IMG/VR virus record: IMGVR_UViG_3300011431_000001 | Span: 1-54,285 of that record | Length of the DNA stretch: 54,285 bases | Source: a virus | Strand: one strand, 5' to 3' | Shown here: positions 1 through 54,285 of the stretch, piece by piece | Numbering within the stretch: the stretch's first letter is position 1 | Layout: each line of letters starts with the position of its first letter | Notes under the pieces: model-generated | What the model was told of the DNA's origin: nothing | The model's input: only the letters and a program-made list of their open reading frames with translations | The model's database searches: none | Position numbers and translations under genes: made by a program

Positions 1-123
1 CGTTTCTTTCAATATTTTGCATCTTTTAAGGGCAGTTCTTAAATAAGTCTTGCCCTTATTATCCATTTTTATGCCGGTCAATTCTTCTAATTGACTATAA
101 GAAAAATATTCGCCAGGAGTAGA
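1..123. repeat. Terminal direct overlap: 1-123 is identical to 54163-54285 (circular closure or terminal redundancy; unique length 54162 bp)
   Basis: Both ends read cgtttctttcaatattttgc...cgccaggagtaga; compared base by base by eye. Confidence 0.95.
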
Positions 124-186
124 TGAAGAAAGAATATTTTCTATCCTTAGCGTTTCGGCTGAAATCTGTTGTATTGATTTTGCCAT
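1..186 (-). CDS. 5' part (62 codons) of a wrap-around gene for a 151-aa winged-HTH-like protein; continues 54162->53893
   Basis: ATG at 186; MAKSIQQISAETLRIENILSSSTPGEYFSYSQLEELTGIKMDNKGKTYLRTALKRCKILKET reads in frame into ORF 53893-54243 through the overlap (456 nt in total). Confidence 0.7.
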   Translation of the reverse strand, partial: MAKSIQQISAETLRIENILSSSTPGEYFSYSQLEELTGIKMDNKGKTYLRTALKRCKILKET

Positions 187-210
187 TTATTATGTTTTTA
201 TAATTAAAAA

Positions 211-305
211 ATCATATCTTATCGGATCGCATCCAATCGAATCGTATCGCATCAAATCCTATCACATCGGATCCAATCGAATCAAATCTAATCCAGTCAC
301 ATCTC
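211..305 (-). repeat. Array 1: 19 contiguous pentamers ATCNN (NNGAU on the transcribed strand)
   Basis: atcat atctt atcgg atcgc atcca atcga atcgt atcgc atcaa atcct atcac atcgg atcca atcga atcaa atcta atcca gtcac atctc; 18/19 units start with ATC. Confidence 0.95.
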
Positions 306-312
306 AAAAAAG

Positions 313-879
313 TCATTCAATCCATTTCATACTTATTAATTCAAATCTACCATTATTCCCGCCACTAGCTGGCCTCCATGTACCTATTCCACGTAATTTA
401 CCAGCCTCTCTAATAACGGTCTCAAATACACTGGCTATAATTACATCATCTCCAATAAATACTTCAATTTCTCCTTCCCATTCATGTATAATTGGAAATT
501 TTCTTACTACTCTTGTCGTCCCCCCGGTCCTTCCATTGCTTGGAACAAATTGTGATACACCCATTAAGTCTTCCTTTTTTACTTTTGTGACAATATCGTC
601 GCTTATATAAATACCAGCTTTAAAATGTTTTGTATACAGCGATTTACCCTTGCCCGGTATTTGTATGCTTGAAAACTGAGCACAATCTTTAATGCAATTT
701 GAGATCATAATTCCCGGTATTTTTACAAACCCTTCTTTTGTAAAATGTGCCCTTTCTTTCCATATTCTTAAATCATATAAATCATCTCGTTCCTTTTCTT
801 CTTTTGGGAACTCAAATTGAAATGGCCTTCCGAATGTCACAGGCGTAAGACTTTTTAATTTACAAATTGCTCTTTTCAT
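313..879 (-). CDS. Hypothetical beta-rich protein, 188 aa; possible RAMP-like (Cas7/Csm3-type) fold, speculative
   Basis: ORF track; collinear motifs LTPVTFG, KIPGIMISNCIK, GIYISDD, RVVRKFPIIHEWEGEIEVFI, C-terminal Gly-rich GIGTWRPASGGNNGRFEL. Confidence 0.6.
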   Translation of the reverse strand: MKRAICKLKSLTPVTFGRPFQFEFPKEEKERDDLYDLRIWKERAHFTKEGFVKIPGIMISNCIKDCAQFSSIQIPGKGKSLYTKHFKAGIYISDDIVTKVKKEDLMGVSQFVPSNGRTGGTTRVVRKFPIIHEWEGEIEVFIGDDVIIASVFETVIREAGKLRGIGTWRPASGGNNGRFELISMKWIE

Positions 880-1046
880 AAAAATTATACGGCTCTCCCC
901 CGATGTGATTTACGCTCTACACTATGAAAGTGAAGAACCACCGGGTTCGAGCCTTATTTTAAATGAAATTTTAAGATTAATTGTCATAATGAAAGCGTAA
1001 ATCATTATGAAGCTAAAAAACTTTATTGACATTACAAAACAAAAAA
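880..1046 (-). promoter_or_regulatory. ORF-free leader with a long-range 11-bp helix (906-916 / 994-1004) and a crossing GGCTC/GAGCC pairing (891-895 / 948-952)
   Basis: tgatttacgct at 906-916 is the exact reverse complement of agcgtaaatca at 994-1004; GAGCC lies about 10 nt upstream of the ATG at 879. Confidence 0.4.
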
Positions 1047-1070
1047 CCAGGCAACTAAAAAGAAGCCTGG
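1047..1070 (-). terminator. Intrinsic terminator after the portal gene
   Basis: Minus strand reads CCAGGC-uucuuuuuaguu-GCCUGG followed by UUUUUUGUUUUG, 35 nt past the portal stop. Confidence 0.65.
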
Positions 1071-1104: not shown

Positions 1105-2547
1105 TTACTTTAAAGGAACAGGAACCCCATTGCTAGGCACAGGAATCGGAGGCACAATAACAACCGTCTCCGCATCAATTCTTTCCAATTCAGCCTTTGG
1201 GTCAACGACAAATGGATTTTGCTCAATGGCTGTTTCTTTACTCAGTATTTTACCATCAACAGCTTTGGTAAGAGTTTCAATAAGCTCAACGGTATTCTTC
1301 GGCAAATAATATTCAAACTTCGGCTTAATGGTCAGTTTCAAAACAGACCTATATGTTGGATCTAAAATGGCTATGGTGTGTTTCAAAAAATTAATTCGTC
1401 TCTGAACCCCTTCCCCAAATATTTCTTCATTATCGGAGGCCTTGAGATGTGCGTCTAAAAACATTGTTTGAAGTGCTACTGTAGAGAAATACCCGAGCCC
1501 CTTTAAGTTTTCAAAGCTAATATCCGGCGTATGTGTCAGAGTGTGAATATACCTATTCAAATTATCCATTTCAAGCTTAACAGATTCTGGCAAAAAATTC
1601 CAAGTCAAATATTCCACTTTGGCGCCATTCTCTGCTGTTAATAATTTGCCTGTTTCGCCCTTTTGAGCAAACCCCTCCACCTTTCCAGACGCGACAACAA
1701 TCGGACTACCAAAATATTTATTTGTGTCATTATGATCTGAGGTTATAGTTTCAAGTGCTTCAATTAGTGGCTGTACATCATGCCACTCAGTAGCAGGCTT
1801 GCAGTAATAAATAACCGGTATTTTCTTTAATTCATTCGGAAGGCTTGTAAATTGACCGGTATAATCGACACCGTTGCTGAATAACCAAGCATTCCCTTCC
1901 TGTTTGCTTTTGAAAATCTCGTCCGCTGTATATACGTCGAAATGTTGAACCAGTTCGGCTTTTTCATTCATCACTTTATACCCCCGCCCAAATGCAATCA
2001 TGTTACCGAAATCATCAAAAACAGGCCATAGGCTATCACCGAGCGATCCTGCAATAAGCTTCACTCCTACTTTAAATTTAGAGTCCATTGGATAATCAAG
2101 CCAGTAGTCAGCCTCTGCATCGTTCACGTACCATAGTTCGGCGCAATGTCTTTCGCTCATCGTCTTTTTTGCAATAGCCTTGAACTTGTAATTAAGTTTA
2201 TTATCGTCCCAAATCTTTTTTAATATTGTAACGAAATCTTCTTCTGGTTGTCCTTCTGTAGTGACATCTATTTCGGGGCAACCGAGGAAGGCGGCGGCAA
2301 TTAAAACAATCTTTTTTTGGAGTGATAAAGGCAATCTTGCCACTTTTACAATATCAGATAACCCGCCTTCGCCGTCATTAATAATTTTATTTTTTCTTAT
2401 AGATTCATCAAATACCTGATGCCTATAAGGGTCATATTGTTTTAGGCAATCATAAACGTTTTTTATGGTGCAATTAATCTCTAAGGTGTGCATGCACCTT
2501 GCCATGTCGCCGGCGGCCATGAGCGCCTGAAGTTGCTGTAGTGTCAC
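1105..2547 (-). CDS. Portal protein (SPP1 gp6-like by size and position); GTG start
   Basis: 480 aa, immediately downstream of TerL; start codon GTG overlaps the stop of the upstream small ORF. Confidence 0.75.
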   Translation of the reverse strand: MTLQQLQALMAAGDMARCMHTLEINCTIKNVYDCLKQYDPYRHQVFDESIRKNKIINDGEGGLSDIVKVARLPLSLQKKIVLIAAAFLGCPEIDVTTEGQPEEDFVTILKKIWDDNKLNYKFKAIAKKTMSERHCAELWYVNDAEADYWLDYPMDSKFKVGVKLIAGSLGDSLWPVFDDFGNMIAFGRGYKVMNEKAELVQHFDVYTADEIFKSKQEGNAWLFSNGVDYTGQFTSLPNELKKIPVIYYCKPATEWHDVQPLIEALETITSDHNDTNKYFGSPIVVASGKVEGFAQKGETGKLLTAENGAKVEYLTWNFLPESVKLEMDNLNRYIHTLTHTPDISFENLKGLGYFSTVALQTMFLDAHLKASDNEEIFGEGVQRRINFLKHTIAILDPTYRSVLKLTIKPKFEYYLPKNTVELIETLTKAVDGKILSKETAIEQNPFVVDPKAELERIDAETVVIVPPIPVPSNGVPVPLK

Positions 2548-2657
2548 AGATCAAGTGGTTTATAAAATTTTTGTTTGATTATTTCTGAACGCCTGATCTT
2601 GCCCGCCATTGTAGCTTTTGCTTGAAATTGCCATTCTCCTAATTTTCCTGCTGCCAT
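2544..2657 (-). CDS. Small hypothetical protein, 37 aa
   Basis: ATG at 2657, MAAGKLGEWQFQAKATMAGKIRRSEIIKQKFYKPLDL; its TGA overlaps the portal GTG (GTGA). Confidence 0.4.
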   Translation of the reverse strand: MAAGKLGEWQFQAKATMAGKIRRSEIIKQKFYKPLDL

Positions 2658-2715
2658 AATATTAGTTTGAAAACAAAACTAATGATATTTTCAGAACTAA
2701 TTGAAAGAAATGAAC

Positions 2716-4152
2716 TTACCCAAAATATCCAACCTGGTTTTTAAGGTTTGACTTCATACCCTTATATTCCTGAAATTGTTTATCAAGTATGGTTAATACT
2801 AAATATCTCTTGTTATCAGAAATATGGCCTCGTGGTTCAAATGTCACGCCTGTTTCAGGGTCTTTCTCTTTTGTCTTTTGCATCTTACCTTCGGCGTCTT
2901 CTTTTACCATTACATAATCTTCTATGGAAGAAAAACAGGTATCTGAAATCGTAATACTCCATCCATATAAATTGTTTTCGTAAATAGCATTCACAAAAGC
3001 TGCAGATAAAGCAACTTCCGGGGCTGACTTCATAACCTTGTCGGTTACTCTATATCCCCTTGATTTAAGAACTTCAATGAACTTATCATAAAACGACTTA
3101 CTATTAGCGTCTACCGTGCTTCTTTTCTTCCCCGATGGATCCCCGCATACAAAGACCATGTCTGTGTGTTTAATGCTGTCAAGCCAATCAGCAGCCTTGC
3201 CTGCAGCTTTTGGAGCATTATTGTCTGGAGAATAACAAAGTATTTCTTTTATTTGGAAAATGGCTGTGCCACGAACCTGCCAGCCGGTTACCGTTACATA
3301 TGGATTAACGTTTTCATCCAATGATACCCAAATTACCCCTGGGCTGTACTGTACTTTTTTTACATGCTTTGTTTCATCGAATTGTTTCCAAAACTCTCCA
3401 CCCGTTCGCACGATGCCCCATTCAGCGTTAGCAATAGCATTCAGAACCGCCGCGTTGCCATTTGCTATAAGCTTCAATTTTTCGTAGTAGTCATCTTGAT
3501 TTATGAAAAGATTGTCTTTATAGGTGCTCTTATGCTTTACTGATTGATCTTTAAACTCCCCATCGAATAACACTTTTCTTATCCAGTGGGATTGATAAAT
3601 TTTCTCAGTATTAAAAGCCCCGTAAAGTTGAGTATTAGCCTTCTCTGTTCTAAGCCTTGAAAAAAGTATTCCAAAGTCATAAAAACTGAACTGATCAAGT
3701 TCCTCACAAAAAATATGCGTAGGATCCTTTATTGATTTTAGAGAATCTGGGTTATTGGCCCCGAATGGGTTGAACTCATTTTTGTTTTTTTTACATACGA
3801 TAAGCATTGAACCATTTGGAGAGTCAGAGAACGTGAAAAGATGATCCTTCTTTAATTCTTTTATCCTATCGGTTATGGTTTTAAAAACGGTTCCCCTTAT
3901 TGTCTCAAATATTTTTCGGCCATAGTAACACCTGAAATACCCATCATTCAAGCAATCATCAATTAATATATCGACAATGAAGACAGACTTTCCTGAGCCG
4001 TATGATCCATATAAAAGATTTATTTTATTTTGATTGCCCCATAAAGGAAGAAAGGCGTCGTTAACCGGGACGACCCCTGACAATATGAGCTGCAATTTGA
4101 GTTCATTGGGAAGAGGCTTGAATAATGAGGCTTCAAGGGGTTTTTGTTTCAC
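2716..4152 (-). CDS. terL: Terminase large subunit
   Basis: Walker A GSYGSGKS, Walker B-like HIFCEELDQ, C-terminal nuclease-like region; lies upstream of the portal. Confidence 0.9.
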   Translation of the reverse strand: MKQKPLEASLFKPLPNELKLQLILSGVVPVNDAFLPLWGNQNKINLLYGSYGSGKSVFIVDILIDDCLNDGYFRCYYGRKIFETIRGTVFKTITDRIKELKKDHLFTFSDSPNGSMLIVCKKNKNEFNPFGANNPDSLKSIKDPTHIFCEELDQFSFYDFGILFSRLRTEKANTQLYGAFNTEKIYQSHWIRKVLFDGEFKDQSVKHKSTYKDNLFINQDDYYEKLKLIANGNAAVLNAIANAEWGIVRTGGEFWKQFDETKHVKKVQYSPGVIWVSLDENVNPYVTVTGWQVRGTAIFQIKEILCYSPDNNAPKAAGKAADWLDSIKHTDMVFVCGDPSGKKRSTVDANSKSFYDKFIEVLKSRGYRVTDKVMKSAPEVALSAAFVNAIYENNLYGWSITISDTCFSSIEDYVMVKEDAEGKMQKTKEKDPETGVTFEPRGHISDNKRYLVLTILDKQFQEYKGMKSNLKNQVGYFG

Positions 4153-4483
4153 GCAACGCAGATATTATTTTATCAACCTGGGAATCCGATAGGGGTTTGA
4201 AAATTGGTTCGCCATCCTTACCGGTGTGTTCAAGACTTTGCTTCGCCTTCCCATAAGCCCTATCTAAAATCAATTCAGCAGCTCTTATATCGCCCTTAGT
4301 AGCTTTTGCCCGTAATGCAGCTAATATGGCCTCTGCTGCTGTTTTACCGTTTTTCTCTTCTCCTAATATTTCTGCCAGAAGAATGTCAAGGTTTGGCAAC
4401 TTTGTTGGCCTTCCCTTTGGGTTTCTTATTTCTCCCTTTTTAGGTGATACTAGGTTTTTTAATGATTTAGGGCTTACTGGCAT
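4133..4483 (-). CDS. Terminase small subunit-like protein (DUF5681-type NPKGRP motif)
   Basis: Basic N-terminus ...IRNPKGRPTKLP...; position directly upstream of and overlapping TerL. Confidence 0.55.
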   Translation of the reverse strand: MPVSPKSLKNLVSPKKGEIRNPKGRPTKLPNLDILLAEILGEEKNGKTAAEAILAALRAKATKGDIRAAELILDRAYGKAKQSLEHTGKDGEPIFKPLSDSQVDKIISALRETKTP

Positions 4484-4510
4484 TTTCGTATTATTTTCAA
4501 ATTAAAATGA

Positions 4511-5338
4511 CTAAAACAATACAATTTCTTTTTTAAAGTTGTTTTTAAGTGTAAGAAAATCCATATCTCTTTCTTCTTTGTTTAAAAAAGTGTCTTTATC
4601 AGACCATTCTGCTAAATCGTTTTTAATGTAAAACTGCTTTTTGTTTTTGCGCATTATTGTAATCGTTTTATTCAAAAAATCTGTCCAATTAAACTTTGCT
4701 TCGTGTTTTGGGAAATGATTTAGCTTACCAATCTTGTAACTATCAACATAATCTTTTGTTAGTTCCATAATTTCTAAAGATTGCTCTGGAATAATTACTG
4801 GCTCAATGCTTGCCCAGGTCTTTACTCCATTTTGGTGAAAAATTTTCAAAGCGTCAAATCTTTCATCGGGTGCGCTGCTGTTTTTCTCCCAATTCAAAGA
4901 ATCCTTTAAGTTTGTAAAAGTTAAACTTCCTCCTACCTGTATATTATCACCGAATCTTTTTATAATATCTAAATCCTGAAGTACATTATAACCGCCCTTT
5001 GAAAGAATGGAGACCGGAATATTGTGTTCTAAAAGGATTAATAAGACCTTTCTGGTTAGTTTTGTTTTATTATTGAAATGAGAATATGGATCAGTTAAAA
5101 AAGAAATGAAAACCTGCTTATCAGAGTTCCTGTGTTTTCTTGCACTAGCTGTTACTTCTTTTATTAATCCTGATTCTTCTTTAATATAAACATCTGAATG
5201 AACATATCCTGCGTTAAAACGCTTCATCATTTTAGGAACATAGCAATAAACACATCCATGGTCGCATCCTTTAATGTAATTAAGAGCAAGCGGAGAATAC
5301 TCCCTTGCGGCTCCTTGTGGTTCATAAATAGCTGCCAT
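4511..5338 (-). CDS. Radical SAM protein, SplB/COG1533-like
   Basis: CX3CX2C cluster in NYIKGCDHGCVYCYVP close to the N-terminus. Confidence 0.8.
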   Translation of the reverse strand: MAAIYEPQGAAREYSPLALNYIKGCDHGCVYCYVPKMMKRFNAGYVHSDVYIKEESGLIKEVTASARKHRNSDKQVFISFLTDPYSHFNNKTKLTRKVLLILLEHNIPVSILSKGGYNVLQDLDIIKRFGDNIQVGGSLTFTNLKDSLNWEKNSSAPDERFDALKIFHQNGVKTWASIEPVIIPEQSLEIMELTKDYVDSYKIGKLNHFPKHEAKFNWTDFLNKTITIMRKNKKQFYIKNDLAEWSDKDTFLNKEERDMDFLTLKNNFKKEIVLF

Positions 5339-5390
5339 AATTAAATAGTTTTAAAAGTTAATTAATTATAGCCAATTTACTGAATTTCAA

Positions 5391-5948
5391 TCAATTACAC
5401 AAGAAAAACCACAAATATTTTTTTTTAGCCGTTCCGCAAACCCTTATCTCTTTTATTCTGTTTTTAGCCAGAAAATCAAAGAACATTTTAAATATTTTTC
5501 CTCCAACAATTGCAGGACTTTCTTTAACGATTTCATGAGAAAGTCCGTAAGATTTACAAAGAGACGAATCAGGATTGATGGCTATTGTTGAAATAAACGT
5601 AACAACTACATACCCTGTATACTTTCTCTTTAAAAGAACTTCAATCTGTTTTACCGGACTTCCCCATGCATCCAGGTCAATTATATTAAATTGAGATAAA
5701 TCTTTTGTCCTTAAAAAATTAATATTATTTCCAACCCAATCAGCCCTATACTTTCCTACCCGATCTATGGAAAAAACAGATATATCTTTTTGCTCTGCTT
5801 TCTTTATTTCCTTCCAAATAATTCCTTCTCCTGCATAGCAGTCTAAAACTCTTGGGCTATCAACCAAATCAACTACTTCCTTCCTAAGTTTTATCTTTAC
5901 ATTTAGTAAATTATTGTCATTATTTATCCTTATATTATACTTTGGCAT
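5391..5948 (-). CDS. Small SAM-dependent methyltransferase with Trm1-like motifs
   Basis: Motif I VLDCYAGEG; IIDLDAWGSP resembles the Trm1 IDLDPFGSP motif. Confidence 0.6.
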   Translation of the reverse strand: MPKYNIRINNDNNLLNVKIKLRKEVVDLVDSPRVLDCYAGEGIIWKEIKKAEQKDISVFSIDRVGKYRADWVGNNINFLRTKDLSQFNIIDLDAWGSPVKQIEVLLKRKYTGYVVVTFISTIAINPDSSLCKSYGLSHEIVKESPAIVGGKIFKMFFDFLAKNRIKEIRVCGTAKKKYLWFFLCN

Positions 5949-6511
5949 TAATTAGAACTTCTTTTTATTTCACAATAATCCAAAAACTCGACTGGTTTTA
6001 TTATGTTGTTTATTTCTTGGTGCTTTTCAATCGGGAATGAAAGTAATATATGAGCCATTGTTTTTTCCCTCAACGACATATCTTCAATTTCAAAATTCTC
6101 TGACTTAAAATCAGGAATATCCAACCCCCACTCCGTGACCTGCTCTGCATCCCATTCATTAGCGATTGTTTCCCAATCCCATTCACCAAAGCCGATATTG
6201 TCTTTGATTATAAATTCTTTCTGTTGTTTAGGTGTTAACTGGCTGGCTTTGATAATCGGAATCTCCTTTAACCCGGCTTCTTTACAGGCTTTCAGACGCA
6301 TATTGCCTCCGATAACAATCATTTGATCGTTTACAACTATTGGCCTGATTTTTAACATTTCAGGAAATTCCAGAATTGATTTTACCAGTTGTTTGAATTT
6401 TTCGTCCTTAATTATTCTGGGATTATCTGGATTTAGTTTTATTTTAGAAATGTCTTGCAATTCTATAAAAAAAGTTTGTGCACCGTTTTTATGGGAAAGC
6501 TTATTTGACAT
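5948..6511 (-). CDS. ParB N-terminal-domain (ParB/Srx) protein
   Basis: IKLNPDNPRII ... IRPIVV ... VIGGNMRLKACKEAGLKEIPI. Confidence 0.75.
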   Translation of the reverse strand: MSNKLSHKNGAQTFFIELQDISKIKLNPDNPRIIKDEKFKQLVKSILEFPEMLKIRPIVVNDQMIVIGGNMRLKACKEAGLKEIPIIKASQLTPKQQKEFIIKDNIGFGEWDWETIANEWDAEQVTEWGLDIPDFKSENFEIEDMSLREKTMAHILLSFPIEKHQEINNIIKPVEFLDYCEIKRSSN

Positions 6512-6648
6512 AATAAACTAAAAATGAAGATTTATTTATTCACCACCATGCCGGCTGACGTATTTAAAGCCGCTGCCCTCGCTCCAACTTCTTCAATGAC
6601 AGTTATAGTGAGTTCTTTCTGAATGCCGAAATCTGACAAAACTAATAC

Positions 6649-6870
6649 TTATTTTTTCGAATTTACAGTTTTTTCTGAAAGTTCGGTAACCTGAGTATCA
6701 TAACGGAGCTTTATGACCTTTTTATTTTCCATGTCCCACACAGGCCTTTTGGTGCCGCCTATGTTATAGTTATTGTATTTCGGGGAAGTTATCGTTCGGA
6801 AGTCTTTGCCTCGATATTTGAACGGTGCCCCTGCGGATAACTCACTGAGGCGGACCTTCTGGCTTTTCAT
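6649..6870 (-). CDS. Hypothetical protein, 73 aa
   Basis: ORF track, co-oriented operon context. Confidence 0.55.
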   Translation of the reverse strand: MKSQKVRLSELSAGAPFKYRGKDFRTITSPKYNNYNIGGTKRPVWDMENKKVIKLRYDTQVTELSEKTVNSKK

Positions 6871-11054: not shown

Positions 11055-12446
11055 CTAAAATGGATCATCTTTGTCTTTGTATGGTAATGAAATTTCTTTT
11101 ACGTTAAATTCTATCCTTTCAGTGAATCTCATTTTTGGTGGATCAAAATCCAAAATCAAATGAGACGTTGCACCATTTCTCCATTTAGGAACTAATAAAT
11201 CAGCCAAAAATTCTGTACTTCTTCCATCTTCGTCAACTTCGTTTCCCGTAACCCAATCCCGGTGAATAAACATAACAATATCTGCGTCTTGCTCAATTGC
11301 ACCCGATTCTCTGAGGTCGCTAAGTTTTGGGTAACGATCTGCCTTACTCCTGGTTGTTGATGCCCTATTAAGCTGGCAAAGCACAACAATTGGAATATCT
11401 AATTCATGAGCAAGTAGTTTTATACCTCTTGATATTTTTGATACCTCCTGCTCCCTGTTGTATTGCTTATTTTCATTTGAAGAATCAACAAGCTGTAAGT
11501 AATCTATTATCAAACAATCACAACCTTTTGAAGATTTTAGTTTTGTTGCCTTAGCTCTTATATCCCTGATATTCACTTTTGTTTTATCGCTTGAAAAAAT
11601 TGGTAAGTTGATTGTGTTTTTAGAAATGTAATTATAAAACTTTTCATGAAGTTCCTGGTCGTTTGCAATTGTTCTGAATACCTTACTAAAATCTATATCC
11701 GTTTCAAGAGATGCCAATCTTGCTGCAATTTCCTTGTTGTTCATTTCAAGTGAAATAAGTCCTATCTTCTTACCGGTTTTTGCCATCTTGATTGCCATCT
11801 GCCCCATAAGCGCCGATTTACCTACTGAAGGTCTTGCGCCAATCACAATCATTTGTCCACCATAAAACCCACCATTCGTTTGGTCAAGTTTTTTAAATCC
11901 AGTAGTAATAAAAGTTTTTTTACCTTTAGCCATGTCATACTGATGAATTAAAAGATCGTACATTAATTCAGCCATATCATACCATTCCTGTTTATATTTG
12001 CTGCCTAAAATTTTATTCAGTTCATCATTCATGTTGTTCACTTCTTCATTCACGTTTATGCCATCAATTTTTTTGTATTTAAGTTCAATTATTTTTCTTC
12101 TCCGCCACATTTCTTTTATTAGGTGGCAATGGTATTCAAGATGAGCCGATGAAACAACATCATTAGTAAGTTTTGTGAGAAAATAGGTAACGTTGTAATC
12201 CAAAATTTCATTCACCTTTTTTTTACTTACTAAATATTCTGAAACTGTTAGGATATCAATAGGCAAAGATTGATCGTACATTTCCTTCATTGCCGAATAA
12301 ACAATTCTGTGGCAATTGAAATAAAAATTTTCTTCGTCAACAATCCCATAAGTTCTACCGAAGGCTGTTTTTTCTAAAAGACAAATACCTAAAATTGCTT
12401 CCTCTAAATCCTGGCCGTGATGGATGTATTTTTTAAATTCAATCAT
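11055..12446 (-). CDS. dnaB: Replicative DNA helicase, DnaB family
   Basis: Walker A GARPSVGKSALMGQMA, LIIDYLQL, RecA-like core; 463 aa. Confidence 0.9.
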   Translation of the reverse strand: MIEFKKYIHHGQDLEEAILGICLLEKTAFGRTYGIVDEENFYFNCHRIVYSAMKEMYDQSLPIDILTVSEYLVSKKKVNEILDYNVTYFLTKLTNDVVSSAHLEYHCHLIKEMWRRRKIIELKYKKIDGINVNEEVNNMNDELNKILGSKYKQEWYDMAELMYDLLIHQYDMAKGKKTFITTGFKKLDQTNGGFYGGQMIVIGARPSVGKSALMGQMAIKMAKTGKKIGLISLEMNNKEIAARLASLETDIDFSKVFRTIANDQELHEKFYNYISKNTINLPIFSSDKTKVNIRDIRAKATKLKSSKGCDCLIIDYLQLVDSSNENKQYNREQEVSKISRGIKLLAHELDIPIVVLCQLNRASTTRSKADRYPKLSDLRESGAIEQDADIVMFIHRDWVTGNEVDEDGRSTEFLADLLVPKWRNGATSHLILDFDPPKMRFTERIEFNVKEISLPYKDKDDPF

Positions 12447-13126
12447 AATGGTTTCATGTATTTTGGGATACCCTGATTTTCTTCCGGCTTAATTTCCTTT
12501 TTACCCCTCGCCTTCCATTTAGAAAAATGATCTTTGTAGTCTGCTGGATTTTTATCGTAAATGCCTCCTCTCTCAAGCATTTTATTAAATTCTGACAATT
12601 CTTTCTCGTTTGTCCTGTTTGCGTTTACGAATCTGTCATCGTTCATCGCAACAGTCAGGCAATGTTCAATTGTATAAAAAATCGTGGGGGCTTCTCTCTC
12701 TCCCTGTATTGATTCTTTATTATTTATTATTGGTATGGGTTTCATTTGGGTTACCCGTTTGGTTTCTGTGGGGAAACCGTTTGGTTCTGATTCAGATAAC
12801 CGTTTGGTTTTGGGGCGACCGCCCTTTTTACCATGCAACTGATTAATTTCCTTTTTATATTCAATATCCTTTCTTATTTCATCCATAACTAAATTTATAA
12901 GTTCACCTTCATTTTTTTTTATAAATTTTTTTGAAATTCTGTTCCAATTTTTTTTAATTTTTGGCGAAATTCTTTTCAATTCTTTTAAATCTTCCGGTAT
13001 TGATCCATTATCAAATTGATAAATTAATAGTCGGATATAAATACCAAATTCTTCGTCTGTCCAGCCGATAGTACTTGCTAAAAGTCTTTTATAGAATAAC
13101 GGGAAATAATAGTCTCCCTTAGCCAT
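12443..13126 (-). CDS. DUF1376-like replication-associated protein
   Basis: YYFPLFYKRLLASTIGWTDEEFGIYIRLLIYQFDNGSIP; sits upstream of dnaB. Confidence 0.55.
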   Translation of the reverse strand: MAKGDYYFPLFYKRLLASTIGWTDEEFGIYIRLLIYQFDNGSIPEDLKELKRISPKIKKNWNRISKKFIKKNEGELINLVMDEIRKDIEYKKEINQLHGKKGGRPKTKRLSESEPNGFPTETKRVTQMKPIPIINNKESIQGEREAPTIFYTIEHCLTVAMNDDRFVNANRTNEKELSEFNKMLERGGIYDKNPADYKDHFSKWKARGKKEIKPEENQGIPKYMKPL

Positions 13127-30064: not shown

Positions 30065-30355
30065 TTATTTTTTTGATTGTAAAAATTCATCTTGTCTTTG
30101 TCTTAATTCATTTACCTGAAGTTGAATACCTTCCTGTTCTTTTCTATAAATACTATTTTGCAATTCCAAACTTTTAAATTTTTCTTCATAATATCGTTCT
30201 TTACCTTCTCCTTTAGTTTGACCATCTCTATAATCACTTTTTAATTCAGCGTAAAACCATACTGCTGTTGCAACAAGTATTATTGTGTGGCCAAATAACC
30301 ACATTAGAAATTTAACAGTAATTCCTTTCAATTCGCTTTTTTCTAAATCGGTCAT
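30065..30355 (-). CDS. TM plus coiled-coil protein, 96 aa
   Basis: FLMWLFGHTIILVATAVWFY followed by a coiled coil. Confidence 0.55.
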   Translation of the reverse strand: MTDLEKSELKGITVKFLMWLFGHTIILVATAVWFYAELKSDYRDGQTKGEGKERYYEEKFKSLELQNSIYRKEQEGIQLQVNELRQRQDEFLQSKK

Positions 30356-32490
30356 AATTGTATGGCTTGAGAAATTTTAGTACCATATTTTATTCTATAC
30401 CATTTTTTTGGTTTAATTAATATTTGATATGAAGTTGCTGAAACGGTAATAATAGTAGAAAAGCCTTCATTTCTTTTTTGTGATCGTTGGATCTCTACCG
30501 CACCTGCCGGAGTTACTTGCCAACTAAGCATTTTATTTATTCCGGAAAAAGAATTGATCACAGTATCAGTAGGCGGTGGAGGCGGTGGAGGTATAAAAGT
30601 AGTATCTCCTGTTGTTGCCCAAACAGTGTCGCTCCATTGAGCATAATTCCCGGCTGGATCAAATGCCCTGACATGAAACCAATAAGTATCATTATGAAGT
30701 AACCCTCCGGCTGGATAATCACTTGCAACCCATGTTCCACCAAAGCCCCAGTTTCCGGCCACATTTAATCCTTCAATTTGATACGCAGATACTTTTACGT
30801 TATCAGTCGCGTCTGTCCAATCGTAATCTATTTCGGTCGGTTTTATCGCTGTAATAGTAACAACAACTTTAGTCGGAGCAATTACATCCTTTGTCCCTGT
30901 CGTCGTTACTTTAATTTCTGTCCCTGGGCTAACCAATCCTTGTTTATTTATTTGATAAACAGTAAAACTATATTCTACTCCGGGAGACAATCCACCTTCA
31001 TTTAGAAATCTGTAAAAAGTTGAAATTTGCTGATATTCAATGCCACTTTGTTTGATTATTATTCCATAGAAATATATTCCACTCTCTGGATCTGAAACAG
31101 AATCCCATGCAATGCTAATAAAATTATCGGTTATATTCGTAGTTCTTAAATTAGCTACTGCCGGAGGTGGTGTAAAATCAACAAATGGTCGTGGTAAAAT
31201 TGGTCGTGGTGTATACACATCATTATTACCCTGTGTAAAAGTAGAAACATCAAGAGTGCCACCAGTTAAACATTTACCTTGAAAGGCCTGTTCTTTTCTT
31301 GTACTATTTAATATAGCCGCTTTTATTTCTGAATAATGTGCCGATTGATGACCGGAAGCATAAAGAGCACAAGCACCTGCAACATGTGGCGTCGCCATAC
31401 TCGTCCCTGAAAAGGCAACATAAATAGGATTCGCACTCCCGTCATACCCTGTGCTCCAAACATTCACACCAGGAGCAAATAAATGAACAGATAACCCATA
31501 GTTTGAAAAACTGGCTTTATTACCACTGATATCTTTTGCACCCACTGAAATAACGTTATCTATTTTATGATTGGCAGGGTAAAAATTTATGATATCATTA
31601 TTTGAATTATTATTCCCCGCCGCACAAACAAATAAAATATCAGCTAGTCTTGCCCTATTTATCGCATCACTAAGGGCAACAGTTGAATCTCCCTGATAAC
31701 CCCATGAATTACTCATAGCGACGAAATGAAAACCACTATCTACCTTCAACATTATAGAGTAATCAATCGCTTCAATGGCCGCTGATAAAGGACCACTTCC
31801 CTCTAAGAATTTTTCTTGAACAATAGTAACCTGCGGACATACACCAATTACGCCAATTGAATTATTTCCAGCTCCGCCAATTGTTCCTGCAGTATGAGTT
31901 CCATGATGGTCAGCAAAATCAAAAATAGTGCTATCATGATGAAGGAAATCATAGCTATGTGGAACATCTAGATTGGGCCCTAAATCGGGATGATAATAAG
32001 CTGCACCCTCATCAATATCAGCTACATATATTTTTTGGCTTCCTATGTTTGTCGCCCATGCAGTAGCGGCACCAATATCTTTCATGCCCCAAAGATCATT
32101 TGTTAGGTAAAGTGAATCATTGGGATAATCTTGTTTTGTTACTATCCAATTTGGAGAAACTGATTTAACGTTGAGGTTCTTTTTTAAAATATCAATAGCC
32201 GCCTGAACATCAACTACATTTAATATATCAACTGGAGTGCTATGAAAATTTCTCATAGCCTTTGTAAAGATTGTTCTTTTTACTGAGGCTCCCATCAAAC
32301 GCATTGATTTCTCATCTTTAGTATTCCACTGTACTAATACCTCATTATCCACCCACCTTTTGCCATCATATTGATTTTTAAATTGAGTAGTTTTAGGAAC
32401 TGTTTTTTCTAATGCTTTTTGATCTTTAATTTGTTTACTACAAGAAAGTAGAATTACAAAAACAAATAGGGTACAGATTATTTTTTTCAT
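30352..32490 (-). CDS. Lipoprotein subtilisin-like serine protease (S8) with C-terminal FN3-like repeats
   Basis: Lipobox ILLSCSK; triad contexts VADIDEGA, HGTHTAGTIGG, GTSMATPHVAG; PPPPPPP linker. Confidence 0.9.
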   Translation of the reverse strand: MKKIICTLFVFVILLSCSKQIKDQKALEKTVPKTTQFKNQYDGKRWVDNEVLVQWNTKDEKSMRLMGASVKRTIFTKAMRNFHSTPVDILNVVDVQAAIDILKKNLNVKSVSPNWIVTKQDYPNDSLYLTNDLWGMKDIGAATAWATNIGSQKIYVADIDEGAAYYHPDLGPNLDVPHSYDFLHHDSTIFDFADHHGTHTAGTIGGAGNNSIGVIGVCPQVTIVQEKFLEGSGPLSAAIEAIDYSIMLKVDSGFHFVAMSNSWGYQGDSTVALSDAINRARLADILFVCAAGNNNSNNDIINFYPANHKIDNVISVGAKDISGNKASFSNYGLSVHLFAPGVNVWSTGYDGSANPIYVAFSGTSMATPHVAGACALYASGHQSAHYSEIKAAILNSTRKEQAFQGKCLTGGTLDVSTFTQGNNDVYTPRPILPRPFVDFTPPPAVANLRTTNITDNFISIAWDSVSDPESGIYFYGIIIKQSGIEYQQISTFYRFLNEGGLSPGVEYSFTVYQINKQGLVSPGTEIKVTTTGTKDVIAPTKVVVTITAIKPTEIDYDWTDATDNVKVSAYQIEGLNVAGNWGFGGTWVASDYPAGGLLHNDTYWFHVRAFDPAGNYAQWSDTVWATTGDTTFIPPPPPPPTDTVINSFSGINKMLSWQVTPAGAVEIQRSQKRNEGFSTIITVSATSYQILIKPKKWYRIKYGTKISQAIQL

Positions 32491-50384: not shown

Positions 50385-50708
50385 TTACCATACTGCTTTC
50401 GTGTTTATTGTCGGCAGGCTCTCATCTGTAACTCCAAGCTCTCCTTTCAAAAGTTTTATACGGGCAAGTATCGCCACGCGGTCATATTTTACAGAATGAA
50501 CAAACCCAGCCGCTGCGTTGCCATCACTTACATCAGCCGTTGTTAACAGCGATTGTAAAAGTTCAATTGCAGCCTTTTTAAGAGCTATAACATTCGTCCC
50601 ATCGTAAGGAGATGTCCCCAAAATTCCCGCATCTATCAGCGCTCCTTCAACAGAGTCAAAAGAAGGAGCGAAACCAAGTAGTGAAATAAATCTTTCCTTA
50701 TTCGTCAT
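50385..50708 (-). CDS. Head-tail connector candidate, 107 aa
   Basis: Position directly after the capsid gene. Confidence 0.45.
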   Translation of the reverse strand: MTNKERFISLLGFAPSFDSVEGALIDAGILGTSPYDGTNVIALKKAAIELLQSLLTTADVSDGNAAAGFVHSVKYDRVAILARIKLLKGELGVTDESLPTINTKAVW

Positions 50709-51817
50709 ACAAACGGTCCTGCAAAGACTGTATCTGTTTTCAAAATAAATATGCCATCAATACTGAGGCCCGGGAAAGCGTTCATTTCCATCCCGGTATA
50801 TTCAACCAGGGGATCATCTTCACCCCATTTTGAAACCAGTGTAGGGCCGAAATTCGCATAAGTCTTCCCACCAGCCGGATGAACTGAACTCATTGAAATA
50901 GCGTTGAACAGTGTACCAATCTTACCGGCCGGAACGAATACGACGTTATTAGAATTAAACGGCTTAATGAACGTCGGTTTCCCGTCAACTTCAATATTTG
51001 CCGTATAATTCATGATCTCAATCTGAGGCCACAGGTTTGCGGTAAATGCTTCATTCACATTCGCAAGGGTTACCGCGAAGGCGCTGTTGCCCTTTCCTGT
51101 ATTATAAAAACTAGCTAAAAAGTTTTTTACTTGGGTCGTTTTCTTGAACGTAACCCACAGTTCATAAGACATGAGAATTTTGCCAAACTGCCTTCCCCTT
51201 ATGTTCCACATTGCCTGTAAAAAGGCTTCAATATCATCTATGGGGGTGGCAGTCGCAATAGTTGTCCATACAATTGGCACACCCTGCAATTGATATGATT
51301 GCGATAAAAGGTCAATAGTTCCATAGGCGGCGCCATCAGGATTGTTAGTTGTATTGATGTCAATTTGAAGGGTGGACAAGGCCTGAAGTAGCATAATATC
51401 TACTCTCTTGTCCCCGGATACGGCCGCTTCCTGCAAGTCTTTCATTAAAAACGCAATGAGAGCCTCATTACTTGAGTTGCCGGAAATAGGAAGTAATCTG
51501 AGAACTTCGATAGATCTCATATCATCTTGGTTCATTCTAAACTTTTCTTTAATAGCCGGTATTTTTCCTTTGTAAAGTTCCAGTTTATTCCGGCTCCTTA
51601 AAGGCGCAGGAGAATCAACATCCACAATGGAGGCCGCGGCAGCTATTCTTTCTCTTCCGATTGCAGAATCGAAATTTATCGACATCTGCGGAAGACCCTC
51701 GTTTAGCCAATTACGCCAGATCGACGATCCTGTAAGGAGATTCTGCGACTGATCCAAAAGGAACTGTAAGTTTTGGCTCTGCGCAAGGTTTGAAAAGTAA
51801 CTCGGAACTATTGCCAT
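50705..51817 (-). CDS. Major capsid protein (lambda gpE-like class, by size and order)
   Basis: 370 aa, preceded by scaffold-like and decoration-like genes. Confidence 0.7.
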   Translation of the reverse strand: MAIVPSYFSNLAQSQNLQFLLDQSQNLLTGSSIWRNWLNEGLPQMSINFDSAIGRERIAAAASIVDVDSPAPLRSRNKLELYKGKIPAIKEKFRMNQDDMRSIEVLRLLPISGNSSNEALIAFLMKDLQEAAVSGDKRVDIMLLQALSTLQIDINTTNNPDGAAYGTIDLLSQSYQLQGVPIVWTTIATATPIDDIEAFLQAMWNIRGRQFGKILMSYELWVTFKKTTQVKNFLASFYNTGKGNSAFAVTLANVNEAFTANLWPQIEIMNYTANIEVDGKPTFIKPFNSNNVVFVPAGKIGTLFNAISMSSVHPAGGKTYANFGPTLVSKWGEDDPLVEYTGMEMNAFPGLSIDGIFILKTDTVFAGPFV

Positions 51818-52454: not shown

Positions 52455-53129
52455 TTATTTTAATGAATTATTTACTTCTGCTCCGTTTTTGTTCATTGCC
52501 GCCTGTTTTTCCACAAAAGCCTTTATTTCAGGGCTTACTACTTTTGAATCAACCGGCGGGGCGGCGCTGCTCTTTGGCGCCGAAAGCATCGATAACCCTT
52601 TTTCTGTGCTTTCTTTTACCAGGCCAGACCAATCGGTCTGAACCTCTGTTACAAAGGCTTCAATTTCTTCCTCCTTATCTGGAATGATTCTTTTACCCCA
52701 AAATGAAGCAGGGACTTCTTTACCCTTTTCATTCAACTTATCCGTGATCTTGCCATGGATAGTTGTTTTTATCTTTTCCCCCTGTAACGCGGTAAGTCCT
52801 TCATTAAGCTTCTTGTTTTGCTCAATGAGCGCCTTTGCCCATGCGGGGGTATCGTCCGTCACTTCAATTGGCGGATCTTCTTTTACTTCTTCTTTTTTGG
52901 GGGGCTGTGCAGCTTTTAGTTTTGCTTCGAGGTTCCTTATTGTGTCGTCCTGCTTTGCAATATCCGCAATAGGGTTGAAGTCGTTGTAGCTGTCCAGTGC
53001 AGCGTCTACTTTTGTCTCATCGTCTATTACCTTTTTTTCAATAAAGGCTGCAATTTCATTGAGCCTCTTTTTTGATAAGTTAATAGCCGGAAATTTGGCT
53101 TTTATAGCCGCAATAATCTTTTCTTTCAT
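52455..53129 (-). CDS. Scaffolding protein candidate, 224 aa
   Basis: Helical, K/E-rich; upstream of the decoration and capsid genes. Confidence 0.55.
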   Translation of the reverse strand: MKEKIIAAIKAKFPAINLSKKRLNEIAAFIEKKVIDDETKVDAALDSYNDFNPIADIAKQDDTIRNLEAKLKAAQPPKKEEVKEDPPIEVTDDTPAWAKALIEQNKKLNEGLTALQGEKIKTTIHGKITDKLNEKGKEVPASFWGKRIIPDKEEEIEAFVTEVQTDWSGLVKESTEKGLSMLSAPKSSAAPPVDSKVVSPEIKAFVEKQAAMNKNGAEVNNSLK

Positions 53130-53158
53130 ATTTCTAAGAGCTTGTTTACTTATTAAAA

Positions 53159-53176
53159 TTTCAGAATTTTCTGAAA
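53159..53176. promoter_or_regulatory. Perfect palindrome TTTCAGAAttTTCTGAAA in the divergent region between the scaffold and RHH genes
   Basis: 8-bp arms with a 2-nt spacer, read directly. Confidence 0.6.
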
Positions 53177-53208
53177 CTACAGGTATAAAAATAAACAGGT
53201 TGAAAGTT

Positions 53209-53243
53209 TTTGTAGTATTATTGTATGCTATATACTACTTTTG
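53209..53243 (+). promoter_or_regulatory. Bacteroidota-type promoter for the RHH gene (TTTG at 53209-12, TACTTTTG at 53236-43)
   Basis: TAnnTTTG match 8 nt upstream of the ATG at 53251, which implies a near-leaderless transcript. Confidence 0.4.
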
Positions 53244-53250
53244 TATTCCC

Positions 53251-53445
53251 ATGAGTTTGAATAAATTTAAACCCATTCCGGTTAGATTAAATGAGCTTAC
53301 ACCCACGCTGAGAACGTGGGCTAATGAGGAAGACCGGTCAGCCCAATATATGATTAGAAAAATTCTTGAAGAGGCTATTATAAAGAAATTTGGCTATAAA
53401 CCAGATTATTTCAAGAAGATGAGGGCGCAACGAAAAGCTAGTTAG
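53251..53445 (+). CDS. Ribbon-helix-helix (Arc/CopG-like) protein, 64 aa
   Basis: KPIPVRLNELTPTLRTWANEEDRSAQYMIRKILEEAI: beta-strand then two helices; the only plus-strand gene in the late region. Confidence 0.5.
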   Translation: MSLNKFKPIPVRLNELTPTLRTWANEEDRSAQYMIRKILEEAIIKKFGYKPDYFKKMRAQRKAS

Positions 53446-53515
53446 TTATAGAGAAATTATTTTTGGCGCCAAAGTTATACGAGAGTGGGACTTTTTTATT
53501 TCAAGTACGCGGGCT

Positions 53516-53668
53516 TCATTTAACTGTTTTACTAAATTGGGTTATTACAAATCCAACAATAGGTGAAAGCAACATAGAAATACCAAAACCACCCCAAAAA
53601 CCACATTGACGTCGCCTAGAGTCATAACCGATGCAGATGCTGAAAATGATCCAAAGTATTATAATCAT
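53516..53668 (-). CDS. Small membrane protein, 50 aa
   Basis: Hand translation MIIILWIIFSICIGYDSRRRQCGFWGGFGISMLLSPIVGFVITQFSKTVK. Confidence 0.45.
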   Translation of the reverse strand: MIIILWIIFSICIGYDSRRRQCGFWGGFGISMLLSPIVGFVITQFSKTVK

Positions 53669-53807
53669 AAATCTAAAATAAGTCTTTTATAAAAAATATG
53701 CAATAGTATTTTTACGAATAAATTGGATTATTTTTTTCTCATTGCGCGAATCAAAGCAATATCCGCCAAGTTTCGATGATCTTTTTCATGTATTAAAGAT
53801 AACAAAA

Positions 53808-53825
53808 AGCCCCAATTAAGGGGCT
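53808..53825 (-). terminator. Intrinsic terminator immediately after array 2
   Basis: Minus strand AGCCCC-uuaauu-GGGGCU followed by UUUUUGUU. Confidence 0.7.
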
Positions 53826-53829
53826 AAAA

Positions 53830-53889
53830 ATCTTATCATATCAGATCGCATCTCATCAAATCCGATCACATCTAATCGCATCTTATCGA
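53830..53889 (-). repeat. Array 2: 12 contiguous perfect ATCNN pentamers
   Basis: atctt atcat atcag atcgc atctc atcaa atccg atcac atcta atcgc atctt atcga. Confidence 0.95.
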
Positions 53890-53892
53890 ACA

Positions 53893-54285
53893 TCAATTAC
53901 TTATTTGTCCTATTATTGGCCGTTCTATTTCAAATATTTTTTTCCATTGAGCCGTAAATGCGAGGGTAGTTCCTAATCCGGCTGCAATAAGATTCATTGA
54001 TTTCTGTTCAACTTCCGGCAGCGATGGATAAATATTACTTTTTATAACACTGTCTGTTATCTTTTTAGCTCTTTTAATTCCTCTTCCAACTTTTTGAACA
54101 CTCTCAATAACTATGGGTGCGGCATTATCAATGCACAAAGTTTTTACTCCTTTCCCTCTTATCGTTTCTTTCAATATTTTGCATCTTTTAAGGGCAGTTC
54201 TTAAATAAGTCTTGCCCTTATTATCCATTTTTATGCCGGTCAATTCTTCTAATTGACTATAAGAAAAATATTCGCCAGGAGTAGA
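53893..54285 (-). CDS. 3' part of the wrap-around wHTH-like gene (151 aa in full; true ATG at position 186 of the first copy)
   Basis: The ORF stays open to the window end; HTH-like FSYSQLEELTGIKMDNKGKTYLRTALKRC followed by IRGKGVKTL. Confidence 0.7.
   Translation of the reverse strand, partial: STPGEYFSYSQLEELTGIKMDNKGKTYLRTALKRCKILKETIRGKGVKTLCIDNAAPIVIESVQKVGRGIKRAKKITDSVIKSNIYPSLPEVEQKSMNLIAAGLGTTLAFTAQWKKIFEIERPIIGQISN
54163..54285. repeat. Second copy of the terminal overlap (identical to 1-123)
   Basis: See 1-123. Confidence 0.95.

Follow-up and report, generated by a model that had tools for sequence, protein, structure and literature searches.

An environmental phage genome, IMG/VR record IMGVR_UViG_3300011431_000001 (positions 1 to 54,285; this whole 54,285-nt stretch is referred to below as the window), carries between its portal gene and its scaffold and capsid genes a 1.46-kb cassette with one terminator at either edge. 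We identify this island with high confidence as a VIPR (Viral Interference Programmable Repeat) system, held as accessory cargo at the boundary of the terminase-portal and scaffold-capsid operons. It comprises a 188-aa minimal RAMP protein (Vipr), a 151-aa protein with a predicted winged helix (Vap), and two arrays of pentamers in which a triplet, GAU in nearly every unit (the handle), alternates with two variable bases (NN). Homology supports a role that would consist of RNA-guided DNA binding and silencing in phage-phage conflict, which the "regulation or anti-defence" proposed in a first-pass annotation of this DNA covers only loosely. The window offers a clear natural example of VIPR in an environmental phage, in the form of a terminator-bounded moron in the head module, and direct comparison with relatives shows gain or loss of the whole cassette as well as guide replacement between 99%-identical genomes.

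VIPR systems were defined in two April 2026 preprints (bioRxiv 10.64898/2026.04.26.720920 and 10.64898/2026.04.26.720927), and seven types are published. Such a system combines a minimal RAMP, Vipr, and the accessory gene vap with vrRNAs, each made up of 9-16 pentamers (GGY plus hypervariable NN) and a 3' tail. In the published model one Vipr protomer binds each repeat, GGY is flipped out, the NN bases pair with double-stranded DNA (dsDNA) while one base is skipped per repeat, and transcription is silenced; vap1 enhances silencing in Escherichia phage SUSP1. Natural targets are given as satellites, prophages or phages, and other VIPRs, and the system is presented both as a CRISPR ancestor and as a very small programmable DNA binder. 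VIPR as a kind is therefore known from these preprints; new in the window are the GAU handle, the minimal 3' end of the arrays and an array located between vipr and vap. Some of the handle variants described below may already be contained in preprint figure S17.

Composition of the cassette

The contig is a circular assembly with a unit of 54,162 bp (bases 1-123 are identical to 54163-54285, an exact 123-bp terminal duplication), and its join splits the vap gene. The island extends from position 1104 through the join to 53803; the first-pass annotation had recognised it but placed it at 1-1070. The parts listed there (two terminators, a leader, open reading frames (ORFs) of 188 and 151 aa, and two arrays) are all present on the minus strand, and follow one another from the portal stop codon in this order:

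1041..1070, minus strand: terminator 1, the left edge of the island, 3' of the portal gene; stem 1070 to 1047, U6 1046 to 1041; -13.2 kcal/mol, z -5.3
1046 to 880, minus strand: leader of 167 nt (880..1040 without the terminator U-tract), with a 9-bp A/U hairpin and a GC-rich stem-loop
313..879 (879 to 313), minus strand: vipr, encoding the predicted 188-aa minimal RAMP with RRM core, thumb and glycine-rich loop GIGTWRPASGGNNGRF
205..303, minus strand: vrRNA1 template (array 1), pentamers 303 to 209; 19 units, 18 GAU and 1 GAC
1..185, minus strand: N-terminal part of vap, whose 151-aa ORF begins at 185 and runs on over the contig join
53893..54162, minus strand: C-terminal part of vap, the ORF continuing from 54162 to 53893
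53826..53887, minus strand: vrRNA2 template (array 2), pentamers 53887 to 53828; 12 GAU units
53803..53825, minus strand: terminator 2, the right edge, which closes the cassette; stem 53825 to 53808, AGCCCC-uuaauu-GGGGCU followed by U5; -12.1 kcal/mol

Terminator 1 was overlooked by a consensus terminator scanner, its loop being longer than 8 nt.

The family profile of the 188-aa protein matches a single solved structure, PDB 36pp ("SUSP1 Vipr protein", E 1.1e-12), and alignment with full SUSP1 Vipr by hhalign runs over the full length (98.2% probability, E 4e-14). Its AlphaFold2 (AF2) model (pLDDT 93.9) has as best Foldseek matches Cas7, Csm3, Cmr and Cas7-11 proteins of types VII, III-A, III-B and III-E (E 1e-8 to 1e-5). 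The family counts 101 homologs of ~185 aa, and a single-sequence search in GenBank phages returned only relatives 27-28% identical over ~65% of the protein. Neither cassette protein matched Pfam, NCBIfam or PADLOC, and of the two only the 188-aa protein was assigned by PHROGs, to phrog_4652 (unknown function). By its profile matches and predicted structure, the protein is a Vipr-family minimal RAMP, homologous to the described Viprs, as its earlier description as RAMP-like had anticipated.

In the AF2 model of the 151-aa protein (pLDDT 88.6), residues 10-70 form a winged helix-turn-helix, after which come two long helices (76-103 and 112-138). Foldseek matches to the model are weak (E >= 0.03), and the majority of the best ones are winged-helix regulators, in agreement with the fold previously assigned to it. 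A profile search found 58 homologs of ~158 aa, and the protein aligns with the second cassette gene of the related loci L001, L003, L004 and L005. The protein is only marginally linked to SUSP1 vap1 (hhalign, 40%, E 3e-4). We regard the protein as probably the product of a vap accessory gene, a putative DNA binder at best remotely related to SUSP1 vap1; the preprints describe the vaps of several VIPR types as winged-helix or HTH DNA binders, which matches the 151-aa protein (bioRxiv 10.64898/2026.04.26.720920 and 10.64898/2026.04.26.720927).

Both arrays lie on the coding strand of vipr and are built of a constant triplet alternating with two variable bases, the triplet being GAU throughout except for one GAC among the 31 units. 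Six GAT triplets at a 5-nt period occur at 19 places in the genome against 0.00 expected (100 shuffles), and no other triplet rises above 5 copies at that period anywhere in it. Array 1 starts 10 nt past the vipr stop codon, carries the NN series GU UG UA UU UC UG CC GU AG UU GC AC UC UG GC CC AA AU UU, and ends as ...GAUAA GAUAU GAU-U6, 19 nt before the vap start codon. Translated from the reverse strand, vrRNA1 gives approximately G-A-Q/H-E/D-V-A-K/N-L-T-G, a peptide that resembles an HTH. Array 2, with the NN series AA GC UA GU CG UU GA GC CU AU AA UU, ends as ...GAUAU GAUAA GAU-U5 and abuts the hairpin of terminator 2. An array end of the form (GAUAW)2-4 GAU-U5-8 is conserved in the window, L001, L003, L094 and L095, and is less regular in L093; across handles, vrRNAs end in 2-4 units with NN = AA (CGCAA x3, GUUAA x4). 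Arrays of relatives reach 22 units, and up to 7-10 arrays occur per locus.

Gain and loss of the cassette and turnover of its guides

A ~95% identical relative, the IMG/VR contig L090, is without the island: identity is 96% in TerL, 91% in the portal gene and 96% from the gene of a ribbon-helix-helix (RHH)-like protein beyond the island through capsid. Homology stops at window position 1109 and resumes at 53802, one base past terminator 2, so that 1,464 bp of the window (1108 through the join to 53803) correspond to 545 bp of small ORFs in L090. On longer contigs the cassette occupies other contexts: it sits beside RecT/replication genes (L001), in a divergent early promoter region (L003), adjoining an integrase (L094) and, in a Ginsengibacter (Bacteroidota) metagenome-assembled genome (MAG; L095), immediately upstream of TerL; the nearest cassette relative is likewise found in a Ginsengibacter MAG. 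Since it is absent from L090 and takes other positions elsewhere, the cassette is accessory cargo and not head machinery. The first-pass proposal of a self-contained accessory module, with the arrays as part of it, is thereby upheld, and the opposite possibility, that the two proteins belong to the conserved head machinery and keep a fixed spacing, did not prove to be the case.

The layout vipr - array - vap (~150 aa) - array recurs in L001, L002, L004 and L005, and in L003, L093, L094 and L095 arrays are found solely between vipr and vap. Two nearly identical phages document the turnover of the arrays. L096, 99.3% identical over TerL-portal-vipr, has 11 units in place of the 19 in array 1 of the window, with other NN; in L097, 99.1% identical, vrRNA1 is the same as in the window and vrRNA2 consists of 14 units with other NN. 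The GAU handle and both array flanks are kept in the two genomes. The arrays thus appear to behave as guides, the NN being hypervariable between near-identical phages and the handle constant.

Further arrays were noted in relatives. In the GAU clade, L093 carries 7 vrRNAs (3990-4545) and L094 carries 4 (4565-4966) between vipr and vap; GGU or GUU stands in place of GAU in many of these units, and handle position 2 seems relaxed there. The GC-rich relative L004, whose Vipr is 39% identical, has eight (GGCNN)10-14 arrays at 4540-6800, each followed by the same ~45-nt hairpin element (aaggaactGGCAGTGGG-15 nt-CCCACTGCac), a structured tail that is absent from the GAU clade. The L004 contig also encodes several pentapeptide-repeat proteins and contains long simple repeats at 3590-3700 and 4060-4230.

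Comparison with known systems

The closest described counterpart is type II VIPR (SUSP1, P. fulva prophage; PDB 36pp). Shared with it are a ~190-aa Vipr with the G-loop motif G-x-G-x-W-R-P...G-R-F, an adjacent ~150-aa vap (putatively DNA-binding in the window), and same-strand pentamers of three fixed and two hypervariable bases; both are phage-borne and without self-targets, and in both guides turn over between near-identical phages. The layout of the cassette also resembles that of the SUSP1 locus (L089), which runs vrRNA - vipr - vap1 - three vrRNAs, with the difference that one array of the window lies between vipr and vap. Similarity to SUSP1 Vipr is seen at profile level only. The handle is GAU here and GGY there, and the SUSP1 contact residues D177 and R138 correspond to T167 and F128 in the window Vipr. 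Arrays have 12-19 units in the window as against 9-16 in the published systems, and their 3' end is (GAUAW)2 GAU-U5-6 (in relatives up to four GAUAA units and U8), with no pseudoknot tail.

With the backbone of class 1 CRISPR-Cas effectors (Cas7, Csm3, Cmr4, type VII Cas7) the window Vipr would share, to judge from its model and by analogy, a fold of RRM, thumb and glycine-rich loop, and a guide-RNA filament that periodically flips out bases. In contrast to those systems, the cassette lacks a CRISPR repeat-spacer array and cas genes, cas1/cas2 included; a single small protein is involved, the period is 5 nt and not 6 nt, and the guide bases do not run contiguously (2 in every 5). CRISPR-Cas itself was considered and rejected: only arrays of 5-nt period were found and no repeats of 24-48 nt, and the database searches of the cassette proteins were negative, as stated above.

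Binding sites of the TRAP protein consist of conserved triplets split by 2-nt variable spacers in ~11 or more copies, an arrangement that the GAU-NN arrays share. The protein fold, however, is unrelated, and TRAP spacers carry no information, whereas the NN of the window are variable and information-bearing. P22 immI (arc/mnt/ant), cited as a precedent in the first-pass annotation, and other late-operon morons are alike in being autonomous, terminator-bounded accessory units among late structural genes. The likeness to immI is one of position and nothing beyond it: there is no relation in sequence or mechanism, immI being a circuit of protein repressor and antirepressor.

Variation of the handle across the clade

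Handles were surveyed on the vipr strand in 86 related loci (80 IMG/VR loci of this Vipr clade and those retrieved earlier), and the handle of the period-5 arrays beside vipr changes by lineage. Counted over loci with a confident handle, duplicates included, GGC was found in 41, GAC in 12, GUC in 5, GAU in 4, CGC in 4, AGU in 3, CUC in 2, and GUU, CAC and AGC in 1 each. Parsimony on a neighbour-joining tree of 62 distinct Viprs requires at least 20 handle changes.

Among the alignment columns of these 62 Viprs that rank highest for mutual information with handle bases are ones aligned to RNA contacts of SUSP1. The top column for handle position 1 is window F128 (SUSP1 R138); columns for position 2 include T167 (D177), W168 (W178) and I57 (E71), and those for position 3 include M58 (M72) and W168. 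In the GGC clade, S, Q, R, F and F/Y occupy the places of window T15, F16, T167, W168 and F128, and some GAC loci carry GGC-like contact residues. This co-variation of the handle with RNA-contact residues of Vipr is suggestive only, the statistic ignoring shared ancestry, and the caveat belongs with the points raised against the VIPR assignment below.

A tentative proposal, possible but held with less confidence than the assignment itself, is that the handle works like a rapidly evolving "private key", co-evolving with the RNA-contact residues of Vipr, the GAU lineage representing a naturally orthogonal Vipr/vrRNA pair that arose under selection against cross-loading of guides between rivals. 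Through such diversification a phage's Vipr could not be loaded with a rival's guides, nor a rival's Vipr with the phage's own. The GAU handle and the many handle switches suggest that handle specificity may be re-tuned by few contact residues, which, if true, would offer orthogonal Vipr/vrRNA pairs for multiplexed tools and would add a layer of self/non-self discrimination to phage-phage conflict.

Proposed mechanism and alternative explanations

By extension from the SUSP1 and P. fulva work, the arrays would be transcribed into vrRNAs, each pentamer being bound by one Vipr protomer with the GAU handle flipped out and the NN presented. The resulting helical filament would pair the NN with dsDNA, skipping one target base per repeat, often at the wobble position of codons, and would stop a competing phage, prophage or satellite from being transcribed; silencing would be enhanced by the winged-helix Vap, as it is by vap1 in SUSP1.

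Several results weigh against this account. The GAU handle fits neither the canonical GGY nor the alternatives listed in the preprints (NNNGG, YNNNG and NNNNG, which all retain G at handle position 2, although "a related consensus" is allowed), and in SUSP1 the change GGY>GAY abolishes silencing (bioRxiv 10.64898/2026.04.26.720920 and 10.64898/2026.04.26.720927). With GAU inactive in SUSP1, function in the window rests on a presumed co-adaptation of Vipr; the handle excludes membership of type II, not of VIPR. No stable 3' tail fold follows array 1 (-0.9 kcal/mol), and no promoter was recognised for the cassette, the leader containing no Bacteroidetes promoter motif TAnnTTTG. Targets were sought under the published 1-nt-skip rule as exact matches over 9-11 units, a search that imperfect targets escape. 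Exact 1-nt-skip sub-patterns of both guides had 0 matches in viral contigs. For vrRNA1 there were also 0 matches in metagenomes and in GTDB genomes (185,579 species genomes); vrRNA2 had 1 match in metagenomes and 2 in genomes, which is about chance level by estimate, all in unrelated GC-rich contigs or MAGs, and none extends to units 11-12. The guides of L096, L097 and L095 likewise had 0 target matches, and when 153 guides of related loci were compared with all loci gathered, a skip of 1 was not enriched over a skip of 0 or 2.

That no rival-phage target appeared in any collection searched is what would be expected if the system were a VIPR directed against the host chromosome or serving the timing of the phage itself, its guides silencing host genes or setting a developmental switch, and the position of the cassette at an operon boundary beside a putative divergent RHH-controlled promoter region would suit such a function. 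The window genome, however, holds no self-match above shuffled controls at skips of 0-2 (a skip of 3 recovers only the arrays themselves), and published VIPR systems are likewise described as lacking self-targets. The species genomes yielded nothing for vrRNA1 and only the two chance-level matches for vrRNA2, the natural targets published are phages and satellites, and the rapid replacement of guides between 99%-identical phages is more in keeping with an arms race than with a fixed control of the host. We therefore consider a host-directed or timing function unlikely.

The 5-nt period had at first suggested a TRAP-like attenuator or a partition centromere, ideas dropped in view of the RAMP/Vipr identity and the NN turnover. 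It is very improbable that the arrays are dsDNA iterons bound by the winged-helix protein (as a centromere, replication origin or pac-like site) with the RAMP incidental, even though a winged-helix gene is flanked by repeat arrays, an arrangement for which TubR/tubC and ParR/parC offer a loose parallel, and the cassette lies among replication genes in several relatives. Three fixed and two hypervariable bases at a 5-bp period would be too short and variable for iteron recognition; the arrays found beside vipr are on the vipr strand, to which the full survey was confined; handle identity co-varies with RAMP residues aligned to RNA contacts; and L090 dispenses with the island. No ParA, ParM or TubZ motor gene was called beside the cassette in any related locus inspected, which, with hypervariable repeats unlike iterons, also leaves the partition or packaging-site role suggested in the first-pass annotation without support. 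The GAU-NN unit does match the optimal geometry of a TRAP binding site, a triplet with a 2-nt spacer, and array 1 ends close 5' of the vap start codon (19 nt), as might be expected of a translational or attenuation device in which a ring or filament on the mRNA controls vap expression or read-through into the head genes without any guides. Yet the protein is a Vipr/Cas7-type RAMP and not of TRAP fold, a regulatory site would need neither NN turnover nor changes between 11 and 19 units among 99%-identical phages, and some relatives have the 7-10 arrays per locus noted above; there is little to recommend this explanation, and a guide-bearing VIPR system remains the reading that we prefer.

The leader upstream of vipr

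The leader stretch 880-1025 folds far better than its shuffles (z -5.3). Directly before the vipr start codon, in an otherwise AT-rich leader, stands a GC-rich stem-loop of ~67 nt (887-953), and segment 880-960 has a folding energy of -30.2 kcal/mol (z -4.7). Visual inspection, ARAGORN and Rfam all spoke against reading this stem-loop as tRNA-like. Rfam gave no family for the leader or the arrays and no hammerheads (gathering over the whole window, E-value mode over 1-1200, and 17 related loci), and no equivalent stem-loop was seen by eye 5' of vipr in L003 or L095. In L001 a different GC hairpin with T6 stands at this position.

Genome setting and neighbouring features

The window has a GC content of ~36%, and all genes near the island are on the minus strand, apart from the RHH gene on the plus strand. 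The head block includes a 199-aa gene besides the scaffold-like and capsid genes; the flanking packaging and head genes are:

1105-2547, minus strand: portal gene (SPP1_portal, E 7e-47)
2716-4152, minus strand: TerL gene
4133-4483, minus strand: gene of a DUF5681 protein with a weak small-terminase match
50705-51817, minus strand: capsid gene, lambda-E-type
52455-53129, minus strand: scaffold-like gene

The portal/scaffold junction looks like an operon boundary, in that a terminator ends the terminase-portal unit and a divergent RHH/scaffold intergenic region with inverted repeats precedes the head genes; as such it would be a permissive insertion site. The RHH-like gene (64 aa, 53251-53445, plus strand) is divergent from the scaffold gene and has a weak FitA-like RHH match (E 0.055). 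An oppositely oriented gene had been correctly noted, although it lies ~360 bp past terminator 2, with a 50-aa ORF between, and not just beyond it. The "perfect palindrome" attributed to it is in fact an 8-bp inverted repeat with a 2-nt spacer, TTTCAGAA-tt-TTCTGAAA (53159-53176), and a further inverted repeat in the same intergenic region is GTAGTAT-13 nt-ATACTAC (53212-53238). This region may be an operator-controlled promoter of the head operon; window 53130-53445, which holds the RHH gene and the intergenic region, is conserved in L090.

Just 3' of the island, window 53460-53727 forms a second variable patch, with a hydrophobic 50-aa ORF (53516-53668, minus strand). The same patch contains two ORFs of 109 and 106 aa in L090 (7061-7703) and an extra ~670 bp with a 144-aa ORF in L097 (3628-4298), and cargo seems to be exchanged often at the junction beside the island. 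L090 also has a 2.9-kb insertion between TerL and portal (2047-4907), including ORFs of 574 and 158 aa without Pfam match; the TerL-portal gap in the window is 168 bp.

No integrase was found among ten window ORFs scanned against Pfam, and no tRNA in the window. An A/T-rich tandem repeat at 12915-12990 (period 32-33, 2.3 copies) falls within the 5' part of a DUF1376 gene (12443-13126) that adjoins a DnaB-type helicase gene (11055-12446), and may be a replication origin. A radical-SAM protein gene (4511-5338) adjoins the packaging genes, and a subtilase of 712 aa with an fn3 domain is encoded at 30352-32490.

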